Part shown: positions 15,037 to 20,230 of the stretch, piece after piece
Layout: every line of letters starts with the position of its first letter
Position numbering within the stretch: the first letter of the stretch is position 1
Source: an uncultured bacterium
GTDB lineage: Bacteria > Babelota > Babeliae > Babelales > RVW-14
NCBI GenBank assembly: GCA_903825355.1
Contig: CAIKAH010000048.1
Span: 1 to 52,938 of the forward strand
Direction: 5' to 3'
Length of the DNA stretch: 52,938 bases
Notes under the pieces: model-generated
Told to the model about the DNA's origin: nothing
Database searches by the model: none
The model's input: the letters and a program-made list of their open reading frames with translations, nothing else
Translations under genes and position numbers: made by a program

Positions 15037-16581
15037 TCAAAAAGAATCTTCATCTATGGTATTGTTTGTAAAATTAACTTTAGCGCCGTAAACATCCTGA
15101 CGACGTGCTTGTGCAGGGATCTTGCATATAGGGCATTTTCTTTGCAACGGCAAGCAAGTATTTAAACAACCACGACAAAAAATATGCTCACAGTTTTTGA
15201 TGACGCCTATCCGAACGTCATCCGCAAACTCTTCAAAACAGATGCCGCATAGATCGACAGGATTCCGTTGAGCAGAAGAAGACTGAACGGCGTGGCGGGC
15301 GGCGCTTGCAATACTGATGGGCGCTGGTGGATAGTTTGATTTTATGGTATTAAACCAGAAATCATATTCAGGAGTGCCACTAGCAAACTTACAGGTGGAT
15401 GTACCAAAATAATCTTCCTTGAAATAACGACCATTCAGACCATAGCGCTGATTGTTAAACTGTTCATAAGGATCATAGTCCCAATGAGGAGTAGTATAAG
15501 TCCAGCCAGTAGTGCTTCCATACGAAGTCTCGTGAGGTTGAGCGGTTGGTTCGATGGTATTAAACCAGAAATCATACTCTGGGGTGCCAGGAGCAAATTT
15601 ACAGGTGTATCGGCCAAAATACTCTTTTTCAGTTTGGTGGCGGCCAGTGCTATAGCGTTGTGCAGTGTACCGTTCGTATGGATCATAGTCCCATTTTGCT
15701 GTGCTAAATGTCCATCCTGCTGTTCCACGCCAATAGGATGTTCTATGAGGCTTTGGAATATGAATAGTGCTTGGTAAGCTGTCGAAATCAGCAAAGCCAA
15801 GTTTTAAGCCAGAATACAGTGCTTGTAGCCCTAAGAGGATGCGGTACATATTCTTCTGCGCTTGGGCCTCAGGTTTATCTGCGGCAGTGGTATAATTGCG
15901 CAGTAATCGCAGCAAAGACATTATAGAACGCGCTCCAAAATTCAGCTTGCGCGGGAATTCATTGGCGTATCCGGCATCACCATGAACTACGCTGCTGAAT
16001 ATACCGCAAACTCCTTCAGCAGCAGCTGAGGCGCGTATTGTTGCTGGCGTTGTCCCAGGTTCTTCAGTGTTTGTAGGAGCGGTAGATGCCTCGCGAGACA
16101 GTTCTTGTTGTGGCTTGCACAGGGCTGCAATATGTTTGCAAAATTGTACCGTGTCTACCCCGGCCCAGATTAAATCAATAGAATGTTCATCTTGTGGGTG
16201 AGATAAAATGTAGCAAAGCTCTTCAATGCAACGAATAAGCGAAATCAGAGCCTTTTTTGCTTCGGCGGGCCTTGAGAAATCATCGCGTAAGCGGTGTTCA
16301 AGCGGTACTAAAGCGGCGCGCAATAATGTGGTTACAAGACCAGTAGCAGCAATCCATTTTGTACTACTTTCTTGAAAGATATATGGGTTTTGCGATTGGT
16401 ATACACAATAGTTATTTTGGCAGGTATGACTTATTTCAACTGGCGTTAATTTTATGCCGCCGTCATGCCATACAAAGCGTGCATTGCCAAACTTGAAAAG
16501 GGTATTTTTGCTATAAGCAGGAGAGTTGTTACTCACTAAGATGATAGAGAGGGCAACAAAAATGCGATGTAAATGTTTCAT
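15037..16581 (-). CDS. Secreted modular protein A: shared N-domain + 2 W/Y/D modules + C3HC4 RING finger (candidate E3 ligase effector)
   Basis: Signal peptide from MKHLHRIF (alternative ATG 16590); RING CGIC-x15-CEH-x2-CRGC-x10-CPIC at 15124-15249. Confidence 0.9.
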   Translation of the reverse strand: MKHLHRIFVALSIILVSNNSPAYSKNTLFKFGNARFVWHDGGIKLTPVEISHTCQNNYCVYQSQNPYIFQESSTKWIAATGLVTTLLRAALVPLEHRLRDDFSRPAEAKKALISLIRCIEELCYILSHPQDEHSIDLIWAGVDTVQFCKHIAALCKPQQELSREASTAPTNTEEPGTTPATIRASAAAEGVCGIFSSVVHGDAGYANEFPRKLNFGARSIMSLLRLLRNYTTAADKPEAQAQKNMYRILLGLQALYSGLKLGFADFDSLPSTIHIPKPHRTSYWRGTAGWTFSTAKWDYDPYERYTAQRYSTGRHQTEKEYFGRYTCKFAPGTPEYDFWFNTIEPTAQPHETSYGSTTGWTYTTPHWDYDPYEQFNNQRYGLNGRYFKEDYFGTSTCKFASGTPEYDFWFNTIKSNYPPAPISIASAARHAVQSSSAQRNPVDLCGICFEEFADDVRIGVIKNCEHIFCRGCLNTCLPLQRKCPICKIPAQARRQDVYGAKVNFTNNTIDEDSF

Positions 16582-18635
16582 GCAGCTCATTTTTTGTCTT
16601 TTGGTTAGGGGGTATCAGATAAGATCTTATTTGCTTGATTGATGACCTTGAATTTTTCAGGATCTCCACCTTTATCAGGGTGATGTTCTTTTGAAAGCTG
16701 CAAATAGGCTTTGCGAATGTCACGTTCAGTAGCGGAGCTAGAAAGGCCAAGATTCTGGAGAGCGTATCCTCTTGCCTTGCTTGGTTCCTTGTCTACTACA
16801 TCGGTTGGAATCATCATACCGACTTTCCACGTTGGTGCAGGAGCCGGAGGGGGGTTGTATCTTGATTGATTGCCGCTTCCGCTCGTATTACCGCCAAAGA
16901 AATTTCTGAAAAAGTTTTCAGAATAATCATCAGGATTTGGCTGGCTGTAGGTGTTAGACTGTGGTCTACTACTTGTAGTATATTTTGGTCTTTCTACATT
17001 ATACCAAAAATCGTATTCAGGCGTTCCTTTAGCGAAATTACAGAATCTCGTGCCAAAGAAATCCGCTCTTGTTTTAGGACTTTTCATGTAAGCATCATAG
17101 GGGTCATGATCCCAATGCGGACAACTAAACGTCCAGCCTGTTGTGCTGCCGTGTCGCGTTTTATGCGGTTCAGTGGGTCTAGGCGGTACTGTAGAGGGCC
17201 GAGATGGCTTATGAGCTCCACAGCATGGACACTGAGAAATCGTGAACCATGTAACCCCACAGCGACATTTCCATTCACTTGCAGAAGAATTTGCGCCGGG
17301 GGCTGAAGGGCCTGATGTTGATCTTGGTGGTGGAGTGTAAGACGTATTTGGTACTGAATATGCGCAACCAAACCCATCACAGAATATATGGGACACTGGA
17401 TTTGCAAACCTAGAACCTGAATTCCGATGGCCACAGCTCGGACAAGTCCAGTCTCGAGGGGTTCGTTTTTGCTCTGCATTAGGTGCAGCTGTTGGATAGT
17501 TTGGTCTTATGGTATTGTACCAGAAGTCATATTCGGGAGTGCCGCTAGCAAAGTTACAAGTATGTTTACCAAAATAATCTTCCTTGAAATAACGACCATT
17601 CAGACCATAGCGTTGATTGTTAAACTGTTCATAAGGATCATAGTCCCAATGAGGAGTAGTATAAGTCCAGCCAGTAGTGCTTCCATACGAAGTCTCGTGA
17701 GGTTGAGCGGTTGGTTTGATGGTATTGTACCAGAAATCATACTCGGGGGTACCATGAGTGAATTTGCAAGTATAGCCACCAAAATACTCTTTTTCAGTTT
17801 GGTAGCGGCCAGAATTATAACGTTGTGCAACGTATCGATCATATGGATCATGATCCCATGTTGCGGCACTAAATGTCCATCCTGCCGTTCCACGCCAATA
17901 GGATGTTCTATGAGGATTTGGAATATGAATAGTGCTTGGTAAGCTGTCGAAATCAGCAAAGCCAAGTTTTAAGCCAGAATACAGTACTTGTAGTCCTAAG
18001 AGGATGCTGTACATATTCTTCTGTGCTTGCTGTTCTGGTTTGGCTGCCGCAGTAGAATAGTTTCGCAATAATCGTAAGAGCGACATAATAGAGCGTGCGC
18101 CAAAATTCAACTTACGCGGGAATTTGTTGGCGTATTTATCATCGCGGTGAACTAAGCTGCTGAATATACCGCAAGCACCTTCGGCAGCAGCTGAGGCGCG
18201 TATTGTTGCTGGCGTTGCCTCAGGTTCTTCAGTGTTTGTAGGAGCGTTAACTGCCTCTGTTGACAGTTCTTGTTGTGGCTTGCACAGCGCTGCAATATGT
18301 TTGCAAAATTGTACAGCGTCTACTCCGGCCCAGATTAAATCAATAGAATGTTCATCCTGTGGGTGAGATAAAATGTAACAGAGCTCTTCAATGCAGCGAA
18401 TAAGCGAAATAATCGCTTTTTTTGCTTCGGCGGGCTTTGAAGTGTCATCACGCAAACGGTGTTCAAGTGGTACCAAGGCAGCGCGCAATAATGTGGTTAC
18501 AAAACCAGTAGCAGCAATCCATGTTGTAGTACTTTCTTCAAAGATATACGGGTCTTCCCAATAGTATTGACAGTTATTTTCGCAGGTATGACTTTTTTCA
18601 ACTGGTGTTACTTTTATCCCCCCGTCATGCCATGC
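15330..18635. repeat. ~1.15-kb direct duplication (about 15330-16470 and 17495-18635), constant offset 2165 bp
   Basis: Anchors 15346/17511, 15537/17702, 15750/17915 and 16201/18366 all differ by 2165. Confidence 0.92.
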
Positions 18636-18743
18636 GACTCGTGCGTTGCCAATGGTAAAAAGGGTATTGGCGCTCAAGGTAGCGGGAAAGCTACTTGTTA
18701 ATAAAAGAGAGAAAATAATAAGAATATGCTTTAAGTGCTTCAT
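16605..18743 (-). CDS. Secreted modular protein B: shared N-domain + 3 modules + two RanBP2-like zinc fingers + C-terminal J-domain
   Basis: Signal peptide; WTCPSCGHRN...C-x4-C and WKCRC...CPCCGAHKP; LGL...DIRKAYLQLSKEHHPDKGG...FKVINQANKIL. Confidence 0.9.
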   Translation of the reverse strand: MKHLKHILIIFSLLLTSSFPATLSANTLFTIGNARVAWHDGGIKVTPVEKSHTCENNCQYYWEDPYIFEESTTTWIAATGFVTTLLRAALVPLEHRLRDDTSKPAEAKKAIISLIRCIEELCYILSHPQDEHSIDLIWAGVDAVQFCKHIAALCKPQQELSTEAVNAPTNTEEPEATPATIRASAAAEGACGIFSSLVHRDDKYANKFPRKLNFGARSIMSLLRLLRNYSTAAAKPEQQAQKNMYSILLGLQVLYSGLKLGFADFDSLPSTIHIPNPHRTSYWRGTAGWTFSAATWDHDPYDRYVAQRYNSGRYQTEKEYFGGYTCKFTHGTPEYDFWYNTIKPTAQPHETSYGSTTGWTYTTPHWDYDPYEQFNNQRYGLNGRYFKEDYFGKHTCNFASGTPEYDFWYNTIRPNYPTAAPNAEQKRTPRDWTCPSCGHRNSGSRFANPVSHIFCDGFGCAYSVPNTSYTPPPRSTSGPSAPGANSSASEWKCRCGVTWFTISQCPCCGAHKPSRPSTVPPRPTEPHKTRHGSTTGWTFSCPHWDHDPYDAYMKSPKTRADFFGTRFCNFAKGTPEYDFWYNVERPKYTTSSRPQSNTYSQPNPDDYSENFFRNFFGGNTSGSGNQSRYNPPPAPAPTWKVGMMIPTDVVDKEPSKARGYALQNLGLSSSATERDIRKAYLQLSKEHHPDKGGDPEKFKVINQANKILSDTP

Positions 18744-18766
18744 GGTGATATTTTGTTAGTTCGCGC

Positions 18767-20230
18767 TTAGGGTTTAGGATGTGTTTTTTTTATCTCTTCC
18801 AAAATAGCGTTTGCTTCACTGATTATTTTGAATTTTTCTGCAAATATAACTTGTTCAGCAGGAGTTGCTTTATCAGGATGGTATTTGAGCGCTAATTTTT
18901 TGTACGCAGTTCGTGCCTCAGCGTCAGTAGCTGTTCTTGGTAGTTCAAGATTTTCGCATGCCATATCACGTACTACCTGATGGGCCCCTTGTACGTTGTT
19001 GTAAACAGCATCAAGTAATTTATCGGGAATCATGGTCCCCGGTTGCCAGCTTGCTGGTCTTTGGTAGGTCCCGAAGTGGTGATAGCCCCCATGATTGGTG
19101 TAATTATTGTCATCTTCATCGCCAGAATCATCAAAATGAAATCCAAATCCGCTGAAAAAATCTCTAAACGGATTGTACCCCCTAGGAGCAGTTCGTACTT
19201 TATTGTACCAAAAGTCATATTCTGGCGTATCATAATCAAATTTGCAGTATTGTTTTCCAAAATATGCTTCAAAATCAGCTTTTGAGTATCCATTAGCAGG
19301 TTCTGGGTGCGCTTGCTTAAAGCGCTCATAAGGATCGTGTGTCCAGCATCGTGATTCAAAGCGCCATCCAGTAGTATCGCCGAAGGAGGTGTGGTGGGGG
19401 TTTCTATTAGCTTCGGTTGGTTCAAAATGAGCAAGGCCAAATTTTACGCTCGAGTACAAAGCTTGTAGGGCCATGAGCGCTACATAGATATTACGCTGTT
19501 TGTTATTTTCTTCTCCTCCTGGAACGTCATTGAAATTACGTAAGAGACGTAAAAATGATATAGCTGAACGTGCACCAAAGTTTAGTTTGCTTGCATTTCG
19601 TAAAATTTCAGTATTAAAATTGGCGTTGTTCTTGCCTGGAATAGTCATAGAAACGGTAGCGCAAATGCCCTCAAGTAAGGCTGATGCTTGGCGAGGAGTG
19701 AGTCCACTAGATTTGATAGACACTGTTTCTGTTGCTTCATTTTCTGGGGTAGGTGAAGCTTTGCATGCAGCTACGACATACTTGCACGTTTGTGCAGCAT
19801 CAACTATAGCCCAGGTAAGGTCTATAAGGTGTTCATCGTTTGGATGCTTGAGTACATAACAAATTTCTTCAACACAGCGCACCAGCGAGATAAAGGCTTT
19901 TTTAATGTTGCCACTGGCTGAATTATCATTAAGCAAACGGCTTTCTAAGGGGACCAGTGCGGCCCGAATGACAGCCGCGGCCATGCCTGCTACCCAAAGG
20001 CGATCAGTAGTTTTGTTCTTGAAAATGTATGGATTATTGTATAAATCATACGGGGTGCTAGCCTTAGTATTACGCGTTATTTTAATGCCGTAATCGTGAA
20101 TGACAAAGCTTGCGCTGCCAATGTTAAAGCCGGCTCCCGTTCCCTTGCCATTAGCTGAAAGGGTTGTAATAGTGAGCGAGAAAACGAGTAATAGATATGC
20201 GAAAAAACGTGATGGTGTCTTTAAATGCAT
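18767..20230 (-). CDS. Secreted modular protein C: shared N-domain + 1 module + C-terminal J-domain
   Basis: Signal peptide; RAALVPLE...ISLVRCVEE...HPNDEH...KLNFGARS shared with A and B; AYKKLALKYHPDK...FKIISEA. Confidence 0.9.
   Translation of the reverse strand: MHLKTPSRFFAYLLLVFSLTITTLSANGKGTGAGFNIGSASFVIHDYGIKITRNTKASTPYDLYNNPYIFKNKTTDRLWVAGMAAAVIRAALVPLESRLLNDNSASGNIKKAFISLVRCVEEICYVLKHPNDEHLIDLTWAIVDAAQTCKYVVAACKASPTPENEATETVSIKSSGLTPRQASALLEGICATVSMTIPGKNNANFNTEILRNASKLNFGARSAISFLRLLRNFNDVPGGEENNKQRNIYVALMALQALYSSVKFGLAHFEPTEANRNPHHTSFGDTTGWRFESRCWTHDPYERFKQAHPEPANGYSKADFEAYFGKQYCKFDYDTPEYDFWYNKVRTAPRGYNPFRDFFSGFGFHFDDSGDEDDNNYTNHGGYHHFGTYQRPASWQPGTMIPDKLLDAVYNNVQGAHQVVRDMACENLELPRTATDAEARTAYKKLALKYHPDKATPAEQVIFAEKFKIISEANAILEEIKKTHPKP

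Follow-up and report, generated by a model that had tools for sequence, protein, structure and literature searches.

A constrained aromatic repeat shared by RING- and J-domain proteins in one Dependentiae lineage: a possible target-binding adaptor of putative host-directed effectors

The Dependentiae are widespread protist parasites of which almost none has been cultured, and no mechanism is known for any of their effectors. Contig CAIKAH010000048.1 of one such uncultured bacterium (assembly GCA_903825355.1; GTDB lineage Babelota, Babeliae, Babelales, RVW-14) was analysed over positions 1 to 52,938, a stretch referred to here as the window. Within it lie three tandem minus-strand paralogs, P0001, P0002 and P0003, separated by gaps of just 14 and 23 bases in a locus whose guanine-cytosine (GC) content of 43-45% is the same as that of its surroundings. 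The three proteins begin with a putative signal peptide followed by a common N-terminal domain (N-domain) of about 250 residues, and they end in one of two eukaryote-type heads, a RING in P0001 or a J domain in P0002 and P0003. Between these ends, and of the same type upstream of both the RING and the J heads, lies the repeat that is the subject of this study (Table 1).

When the translations of the three genes are scanned with a regular expression, six copies of the repeat come up and no more, each 57-66 residues long and on the minus strand. An earlier reading of the DNA made without database searches (the sequence-only reading) had placed six copies at these same sites, with low ends each 3 bases lower, which corresponds to one extra residue after the final Asn. 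In the six-copy alignment 22 of 63 columns are invariant: P1, H2, T4, T9, G11, W12, W19 and D22-P23-Y24 in the first part, and F44-G45, C49, F51, T55-P56-E57-Y58-D59-F60-W61 and N63 in the second. Every residue that had been called invariant beforehand (a His, three Trp, DPY, one Cys and TPEYDFW) is found among them. With the addition of two copies from a sister-species metagenome bin, 21 of the 22 columns stay invariant, T4 being replaced by Ser in one copy. Spacing is fixed over the first 24 and the last 20 residues of the repeat in both the six- and the eight-copy alignments, and the only indel outside the internal stretch is a single residue at column 7. The claim that length variation is held to one internal stretch agrees with the alignments, where almost all indels fall there; this variable stretch does lie between DPY and [YF]FG, but its length is 12-21 residues and not 10-21 as first given.

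The single P0003 copy, used as a phmmer query so that no profile of all six copies was involved, retrieves the remaining five with independent E-values (E) of 3.9e-11 to 3.7e-14, and no further significant match was found among the 508 six-frame open reading frames of at least 40 residues in the window. The repeat is a discrete, real, repeated protein module. Its composition is 26% W/Y/F and 1.1% L/I/V/M, as compared to 8-9% and 22-23% in the N-domains. Two candidate identities were considered and dropped: zinc binding, because the repeat has just one invariant His and one invariant Cys, and a WW or GYF domain, because the Trp spacing does not fit the consensus.

The repeat is under purifying selection as strong as that on the N-domain. 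Between P0003 and its sister-species ortholog P0006, the ratio of nonsynonymous to synonymous substitution rates (omega) is 0.20 for the repeat and 0.16 for the N-domain; between P0001 and P0002 it is 0.14 and 0.15 for repeats A and B, and 0.21 for the N-domain. When repeat types are compared with one another, synonymous divergence (dS) is saturated in 13 of the 19 computed pairs and 0.87-2.34 in the rest, with 43-66% of residues kept.

Table 1. Features of the three-gene locus; positions are those of the window and residues those of the encoded protein.
Feature	Position	Strand	Residues	Remarks
Gene P0001	15037..16590	-	517 aa	Putative signal peptide, N-domain, repeats A and B, C3HC4 RING
C3HC4 RING of P0001	15121..15252	-	447-490	Pfam
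Repeat P0001-B	15349..15537	-	352-414	63 aa
Repeat P0001-A	15559..15750	-	281-344	64 aa
N-domain of P0001	15751..16509	-	about 28-280	
Signal-peptide-like segment of P0001	16510..16590	-		Hydrophobic N-terminus
Gene P0002	16605..18743	-	712 aa	Putative signal peptide, N-domain, repeats A and B, Cys-rich linker, repeat C, G/F-like stretch, J domain
J domain of P0002	16614..16751	-	665-710	HPD present (HHPDK)
G/F-rich, aliphatic-poor stretch of P0002	16752..16997	-		Directly before J domain
Repeat P0002-C	16998..17168	-	526-582	57 aa; shortest loop
Linker of P0002	17169..17513	-	411-525	Two Cys-rich, Zn-ribbon-like motifs
Repeat P0002-B	17514..17702	-	348-410	63 aa
Repeat P0002-A	17724..17915	-	277-340	64 aa
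N-domain of P0002	17916..18668	-		From N-domain alignment
Signal-peptide-like segment of P0002	18669..18743	-		Hydrophobic N-terminus
Gene P0003	18767..20230	-	487 aa	Putative signal peptide, N-domain, one repeat, G/F-like stretch, J domain
J domain of P0003	18785..18949	-	428-482	HPD present (YHPDK)
G/F-rich, aliphatic-poor stretch of P0003	19049..19201	-		Between repeat and J domain
Repeat P0003	19202..19399	-	278-343	66 aa; longest loop
N-domain of P0003	19400..20149	-		From N-domain alignment
Signal-peptide-like segment of P0003	20150..20230	-		Hydrophobic N-terminus

Searches of Pfam and NCBIfam return nothing over the repeat, either in the whole proteins (E up to 1) or in an isolated di-repeat (E up to 10), where the lone exception is a chance-level match to CdiI_4 (E 0.15, 13 bits against a cutoff of 25.9). 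The sequence-only reading had called the repeat unrecognised and had named a confident Pfam match as the result that would overturn this; none came up. The PDB holds no match to the repeat profile (hmmsearch, 177,635 sequences, E up to 10), and a search of the ESM Atlas by features with the di-repeat gave no usable match, the Atlas having no model for it. In the organism's own genome (a 1.39-Mb assembly in 57 contigs, 95.5% complete), the profile matches only the six window copies in a six-frame scan. The profile finds the repeat in none of 60 relatives, 3 of them in the same genus, whose genomes are 58-99% complete, and the eight-copy profile finds it in none of 260 other genomes of the phylum. 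Among 1,835,955,588 cluster representatives, two proteins match the repeat profile at E up to 0.001, P0004 and P0005, and both come from the window's organism or its sister. A word-indexed search of 5.77 billion clusters returned five repeat proteins, all from the same two genomes. Pattern searches gave 90 matches in a genome collection and 57 in viral contigs, none of which was confirmed, and 105 in metagenome contigs, of which two were confirmed, both in one sister-species bin. Proteins P0005 and P0006 of this bin are named 'Candidatus Dependentiae bacterium' at NCBI, and the bin is syntenic with the window, the products of glyA and mgtE being 92% and 99% identical and both genes about 90% identical at the nucleotide level. 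The repeat is known only from the window's genome and this one metagenome bin, and so from a narrow Dependentiae lineage. A literature search, with subscription journals outside its scope, found no published description of the repeat family.

At the C-terminus of P0001, four RING Pfam models score above their cutoffs (zf-RING_5, 35.2 bits against 27.9), and all eight RING ligands are present (CGIC...CEH..C..C...C..C). In the full-length AlphaFold2 model this region aligns with Ring1b (2ckl_B) over 66 residues at Z 8.4 and a root-mean-square deviation of 2.5 A (VIA-align), and a Foldseek search with the full model matched only RING chains, at E of about 0.06 or weaker. By its ligand pattern and modelled fold, the P0001 C-terminus is classed as the head of a RING-type E3 ubiquitin ligase (E3), with ligase activity predicted. 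The DnaJ family (PF00226, cutoff 27.8 bits) scores 47.8 bits in P0002 and 46.4 bits in P0003, and on this profile match together with the HPD motif both C-termini are assigned as J domains. At the other end, Kyte-Doolittle hydropathy peaks at 1.46-1.87 in the N-termini of the three proteins, and a basic n-region and an LSA/N-type cleavage site can be read by eye in each. We regard these N-termini, from hydropathy and visual reading, as putative Sec-type signal peptides.

The linker that separates repeats B and C of P0002 contains the motifs W.C..C...C....C and W.C.C...C.CC, which resemble small zinc ribbons. The RanBP2/NZF pattern is W-x-C-x(2,4)-C-x3-N-x6-C-x2-C, and the linker falls short of it: Zn_ribbon_RanBP reaches 16.3 bits against a cutoff of 27 (E 0.0058), the match spans just the first 15 profile positions, and the spacing of the second Cys pair differs. 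The stretches before the J domains are rich in Gly and Phe (G/F), that of P0003 having 22% W/Y/F, 2% L/I/V/M, 14% G and 14% F, and contain for example 'NPFRDFFSGFGF' and 'NFFRNFFGG'. Endocytic motifs of the AP-2/EH type (DPF/DPW, NPF and FxDxF) were rejected as a candidate, since they appear in the G/F stretch as isolated look-alikes that are unconserved between the paralogs.

AlphaFold2 models the N-domain of P0001 as a helical bundle (residues 74-266) preceded by a small beta sheet (residues 30-66). Over residues 30-270 of the full-length model, the predicted local distance difference test (pLDDT), averaged in blocks of 10 residues, is mostly 73-91; it drops to 57-68 near residues 51-70, 201-210 and 261-270, and is lowest, at 40, over residues 171-180. 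No Pfam family matches the N-domain, a search of the ESM Atlas by features gave no usable match, and VIA-align found no specific fold match, since no score rose above Z 7.0 and the chains matched were helical or membrane bundles of a generic kind. A conserved helix of the domain reads 'ALLR..A.P.E..LRNDTS'. Of the 34 other genomes in the same family, 7, from three genera, have the N-domain at E up to 0.001 (8 at E up to 0.01), whereas none of 226 genomes from 20 further families in the phylum has a match at the stricter threshold. Its relatives frequently form tandem arrays, which hold as many as six paralogs, and they are commonly fused to RING fingers at the C-terminus. When eleven of these relatives were compared with Pfam, four had a RING above cutoff, one a RING-like domain below it, two a J domain and four nothing recognisable. 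Given this distribution and these heads, the N-domain is a scaffold particular to the family, on which heads of eukaryote type are mounted, and the repeat entered the middle of these proteins recently.

Copy number varies: among paralogs and close relatives there are 0, 1, 2 or 3 copies of the repeat. The sister-species ortholog of P0003, P0006 (L008:7179-8513), combines an N-domain and repeat of the P0003 type (77% identity) with a J tail of the P0002 type, in which 61 of 75 residues are identical, as compared to 33 of 71 for the P0003 tail. P0006 thus shows head swapping between paralogs. Across the whole protein, P0003 and P0006 are 64% identical, and 77% in the N-domain and repeat, as compared to 92-99% for glyA and mgtE in the same genome pair; the effector genes evolve faster than the housekeeping genes. 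A RING gene of the sister bin (L007:3-700) carries one hybrid copy, which starts as type A and continues as type B. The RING of this gene is broken, with the central Cys/His part missing and the C-terminal part continuing in another frame, and could be a pseudogene or an assembly error. Together, relatives with no copy, the hybrid copy and the P0006 mosaic indicate that copy number and head are reshuffled by recombination. P0004, from a public collection, is a 513-residue chimera that begins as P0002 and ends as P0001. Among the sequencing runs listed as containing the locus, none is of RNA. In Logan contigs from four runs of two studies, labelled as lake water or estuary, the locus is covered in pieces of 151-739 bases, none of which spans it, and one contig joins position 18324 to 16160, equivalent positions in the N-domains of P0002 and P0001 with 32 shared letters. 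This junction, and possibly P0004 too, is either an assembly cross-over between the paralogs or a real recombinant.

The repeat sequence family and its aliphatic-free make-up are new here, while a repeat-bearing effector with a eukaryote-type head is a known kind. HopI1, a type III effector of Pseudomonas syringae, is described in excerpts of the source as an N-region, central P/Q-rich repeats and a C-terminal J domain, with repeats that are dispensable for Hsp70 binding and required for virulence (PMC4617103). P0002 and P0003 have the same order of parts: so far as those excerpts go, a targeting N-region is followed, as in HopI1, by imperfect repeats in tandem, each tens of residues long, and then by a J domain at the C-terminus, which in HopI1 engages host Hsp70. 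The HopI1 repeats are hydrophilic and P/Q-rich, however, whereas those of the window are rich in W/Y/F/T; HopI1 is delivered by type III secretion, whereas the window proteins have putative Sec-type signal peptides; and HopI1 acts in plant chloroplasts. AvrPtoB, likewise from Pseudomonas syringae, is presented in the same excerpts as having target-binding repeat units ahead of an E3 domain (PMC4617103). This resembles, to the extent described there, the logic that we propose for P0001, with repeated target-binding units upstream of an E3 head and ubiquitination of the bound host proteins. The head of P0001 differs in being a canonical C3HC4 RING, and the AvrPtoB repeats lack sequence similarity to the window repeat, which is itself a putative binder. 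The E3 of AvrPtoB is reportedly U-box-like. We take the resemblance to HopI1 and AvrPtoB as working logic and not as membership, and claim no homology outside the heads.

The G/F regions of class A and B J-domain proteins (DnaJ and DNAJB1) are aromatic- and Gly-rich, aliphatic-poor segments beside the J domain, with a proposed role in tuning the interplay between Hsp70 and its clients. P0002, P0003 and an ortholog from a genome of the same genus (G003) have clear G/F-like stretches just before the J domain, although the order is reversed, since in canonical DnaJ the J domain comes before the G/F region. The repeat is unlike G/F regions in having Trp, Thr, Pro and strictly invariant motifs, and in being found with a RING head as well. 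At the level of gene families, intracellular bacteria such as Parachlamydiaceae and Legionella are reported, in excerpts of the source, to have expanded families of ubiquitination-related, eukaryote-like effectors (PMC4209131). As far as these excerpts describe them, such families are like the window genes in being fast-evolving tandem duplicates with eukaryote-type domains of the ubiquitin system in protist- or amoeba-associated bacteria. They are unlike them in that the N-domain scaffold is found within one Dependentiae family only.

The module, its constraint, architecture, distribution and shuffling are observed; that the proteins are secreted into the host, that the repeat binds there and what kind of target it binds are inferred. 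We favour, at about even confidence, a reading of the repeat as an adaptor, particular to this lineage, that binds the targets of modular effectors directed at the host, its copy number shifting by recombination. The family plan would run from a signal peptide through the N-domain and a variable middle to a eukaryote-type head. RING and J domains act by recruitment of ubiquitin-charged E2 (E2~ubiquitin) and by activation of Hsp70, and neither head is known to have a partner in the bacterial periplasm. Because of this and the putative signal peptides, action in the host after export is most plausible: once outside the bacterium, the RING would recruit E2~ubiquitin and the J domain would switch on host Hsp70. 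Specificity in E3 and J/Hsp70 systems comes from the non-catalytic part. Since a shared, constrained module lies upstream of both heads, the repeat is best read as the adaptor. Its conserved aromatics would bind a host protein or assembly, whether prefolded or folding on contact, and the bound target would be presented to the ubiquitin-ligase head in P0001 and to Hsp70 in P0002 and P0003. Copy number, altered by recombination between copies, would set valency or reach. The sequence-only reading had suggested an aromatic surface for a glycan, lipid or peptide, with specificity set by the variable loop and avidity tuned by copy number. The domain-like spacing of the repeat, its presence ahead of two kinds of head with signs of shuffling, and the analogy with HopI1 and AvrPtoB also speak for the adaptor. 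The RING and J context together with the signal peptides points to a host cytosolic protein as the target rather than a glycan. Within the same phylum, the cultured Chromulinavorax destructans is described, in excerpts of the source, as having signal peptides in 44% of its coding sequences, and Sec-exported effectors have been proposed for it (PMC6561590).

Several observations weigh against a target-binding adaptor. First, AlphaFold2 gives a mean pLDDT of 56 for a single copy with the six-copy alignment, and 27-45 over residues 271-444, the repeats, of the full-length P0001 model. The single-copy model suggests, at low confidence, a beta hairpin (residues 2-13) and two helices (residues 23-33 and 40-44), and its best structural match among 48,161 chains has a Z of 2.6 (VIA-align), a result of little weight given the poor quality of the model. 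Second, the composition of the repeat is unlike that of ordinary globular domains. Third, the syntenic site by mgtE is occupied by repeat-free relatives in two genomes of the same genus. In G002 it holds an N-domain protein with a RING and a Pro-rich linker, and in G003 (L019:1336-3168, plus strand) an N-domain, a 273-residue spacer, a G/F stretch and a J domain. The G003 spacer consists of G[YF][DN]xxG-type short repeats in longer units of roughly 90 residues and has 20% W/Y/F and 1.5% L/I/V/M. It is unrelated to the repeat at the same position (hhalign probability 0.1%, no profile similarity), and Pfam recognises nothing in it. An aromatic-rich, unrelated spacer at this place is a hint that what counts may be composition and not a particular fold. 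The J domain of this G003 protein has HTD in place of HPD. Finally, P0007, which is 71% identical to P0003, lacks the repeat, keeping only its first residues 'NPH.SSF' before an acidic stretch, and P0008 is a variant of P0006 with the repeat cut out.

The main alternative, a tentative one which we think possible but rather doubtful, is that the repeat is a composition-driven aromatic 'sticker' region, largely disordered and aliphatic-free, that makes multivalent weak contacts and has no single binding site. Akin to G/F or prion-like regions, it might partition into host condensates or modulate Hsp70/client handling. The low AlphaFold2 confidence, the content of 26% aromatic and 1.1% L/I/V/M residues and the clearly G/F-rich adjoining stretches all suit such a region, as do the unrelated repeat of like composition at the same place in the G003 ortholog and the varying presence of the repeat among close relatives. 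Disorder driven by composition normally tolerates substitutions and indels throughout, however. Here, 21 positions are strictly invariant, including three Trp, Cys, Gly and Pro, despite mostly saturated synonymous sites; spacing is fixed outside one indel-tolerant stretch; and omega falls to the same low level as in the N-domain, whose fold is predicted with confidence. A precedent for disorder is offered by the central repeats of HopI1, which are, in the excerpts of the source, predicted to be disordered yet needed for function (PMC4617103).

Whether the repeat folds is weighed on the same evidence. The sequence-only reading had proposed an independently folding domain and had said that a prediction of the repeat as unstructured would count against it. 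The pLDDT values give independent folding no support and count against it, but low AlphaFold2 confidence is weak evidence here, and non-decisive, because the alignments over the repeat are very shallow (for the six-copy alignment, hhalign gives an effective number of sequences, Neff, of 1.9). Given the 21 invariant columns, the strict spacing and a constraint equal to that of the well-predicted N-domain, we have a slight preference for a small folded unit, or for one that takes shape when it binds. A more specific version, which we consider unlikely, is that the repeat is a recently born mini-domain, a new aromatic-core fold, practically free of Leu, Ile, Val and Met, that serves as a plug-in host-target unit shared by ubiquitin-ligase and Hsp70-hijacking effectors on a Sec-dependent N-terminal scaffold, new to description and restricted to one Dependentiae family. 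In that case two separate host machineries would be turned on a single host target.

Two further alternatives fare worse. It is highly improbable, in our judgement, that the repeat is a membrane-interface, lipid- or glycan-binding domain that anchors the head to a host membrane or sugar polymer, as options in the sequence-only reading would have it. Its high content of Trp and Tyr, residues that favour membrane interfaces and carbohydrate stacking, would suit this role, and the N-domain helices are only moderately hydrophobic (Kyte-Doolittle 1.0-1.6), so that extra membrane contact is conceivable. With matches of E up to 10 allowed, however, no carbohydrate- or lipid-binding Pfam family resembles the repeat; the host cytosol, in which RING and J heads act, contains few glycans; and nothing in the data speaks for lipid binding. 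Just as hard to credit is a passive role, with the repeat as a mere spacer or as a passenger that expanded recently and lacks a specific function. The middle region does vary greatly across the family (it can be Pro-rich, G[YF][DN]-rich, made of the repeat or missing) and copy number shifts by recombination, but purifying selection on the repeat matches that on the N-domain, most between-type dS is saturated, and the invariant motifs are kept in eight of eight copies from two species.

These observations have limited practical reach, as only two genomes, both uncultured and closely related, are known to carry the module. The locus nevertheless offers a compact, testable case, in which one front end, RING and J heads and a shared module found nowhere else come together. 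If the repeat is disordered, it would be one of the rare bacterial low-complexity regions that are aromatic and strongly constrained in sequence. If it folds, it would be an aliphatic-free, aromatic-core domain under purifying selection, of interest for protein folding and for the birth of new domains. If the repeat binds a host factor, as a target-binding adaptor would, this would name a host target of these parasites and show the redirection of both ubiquitination and Hsp70.

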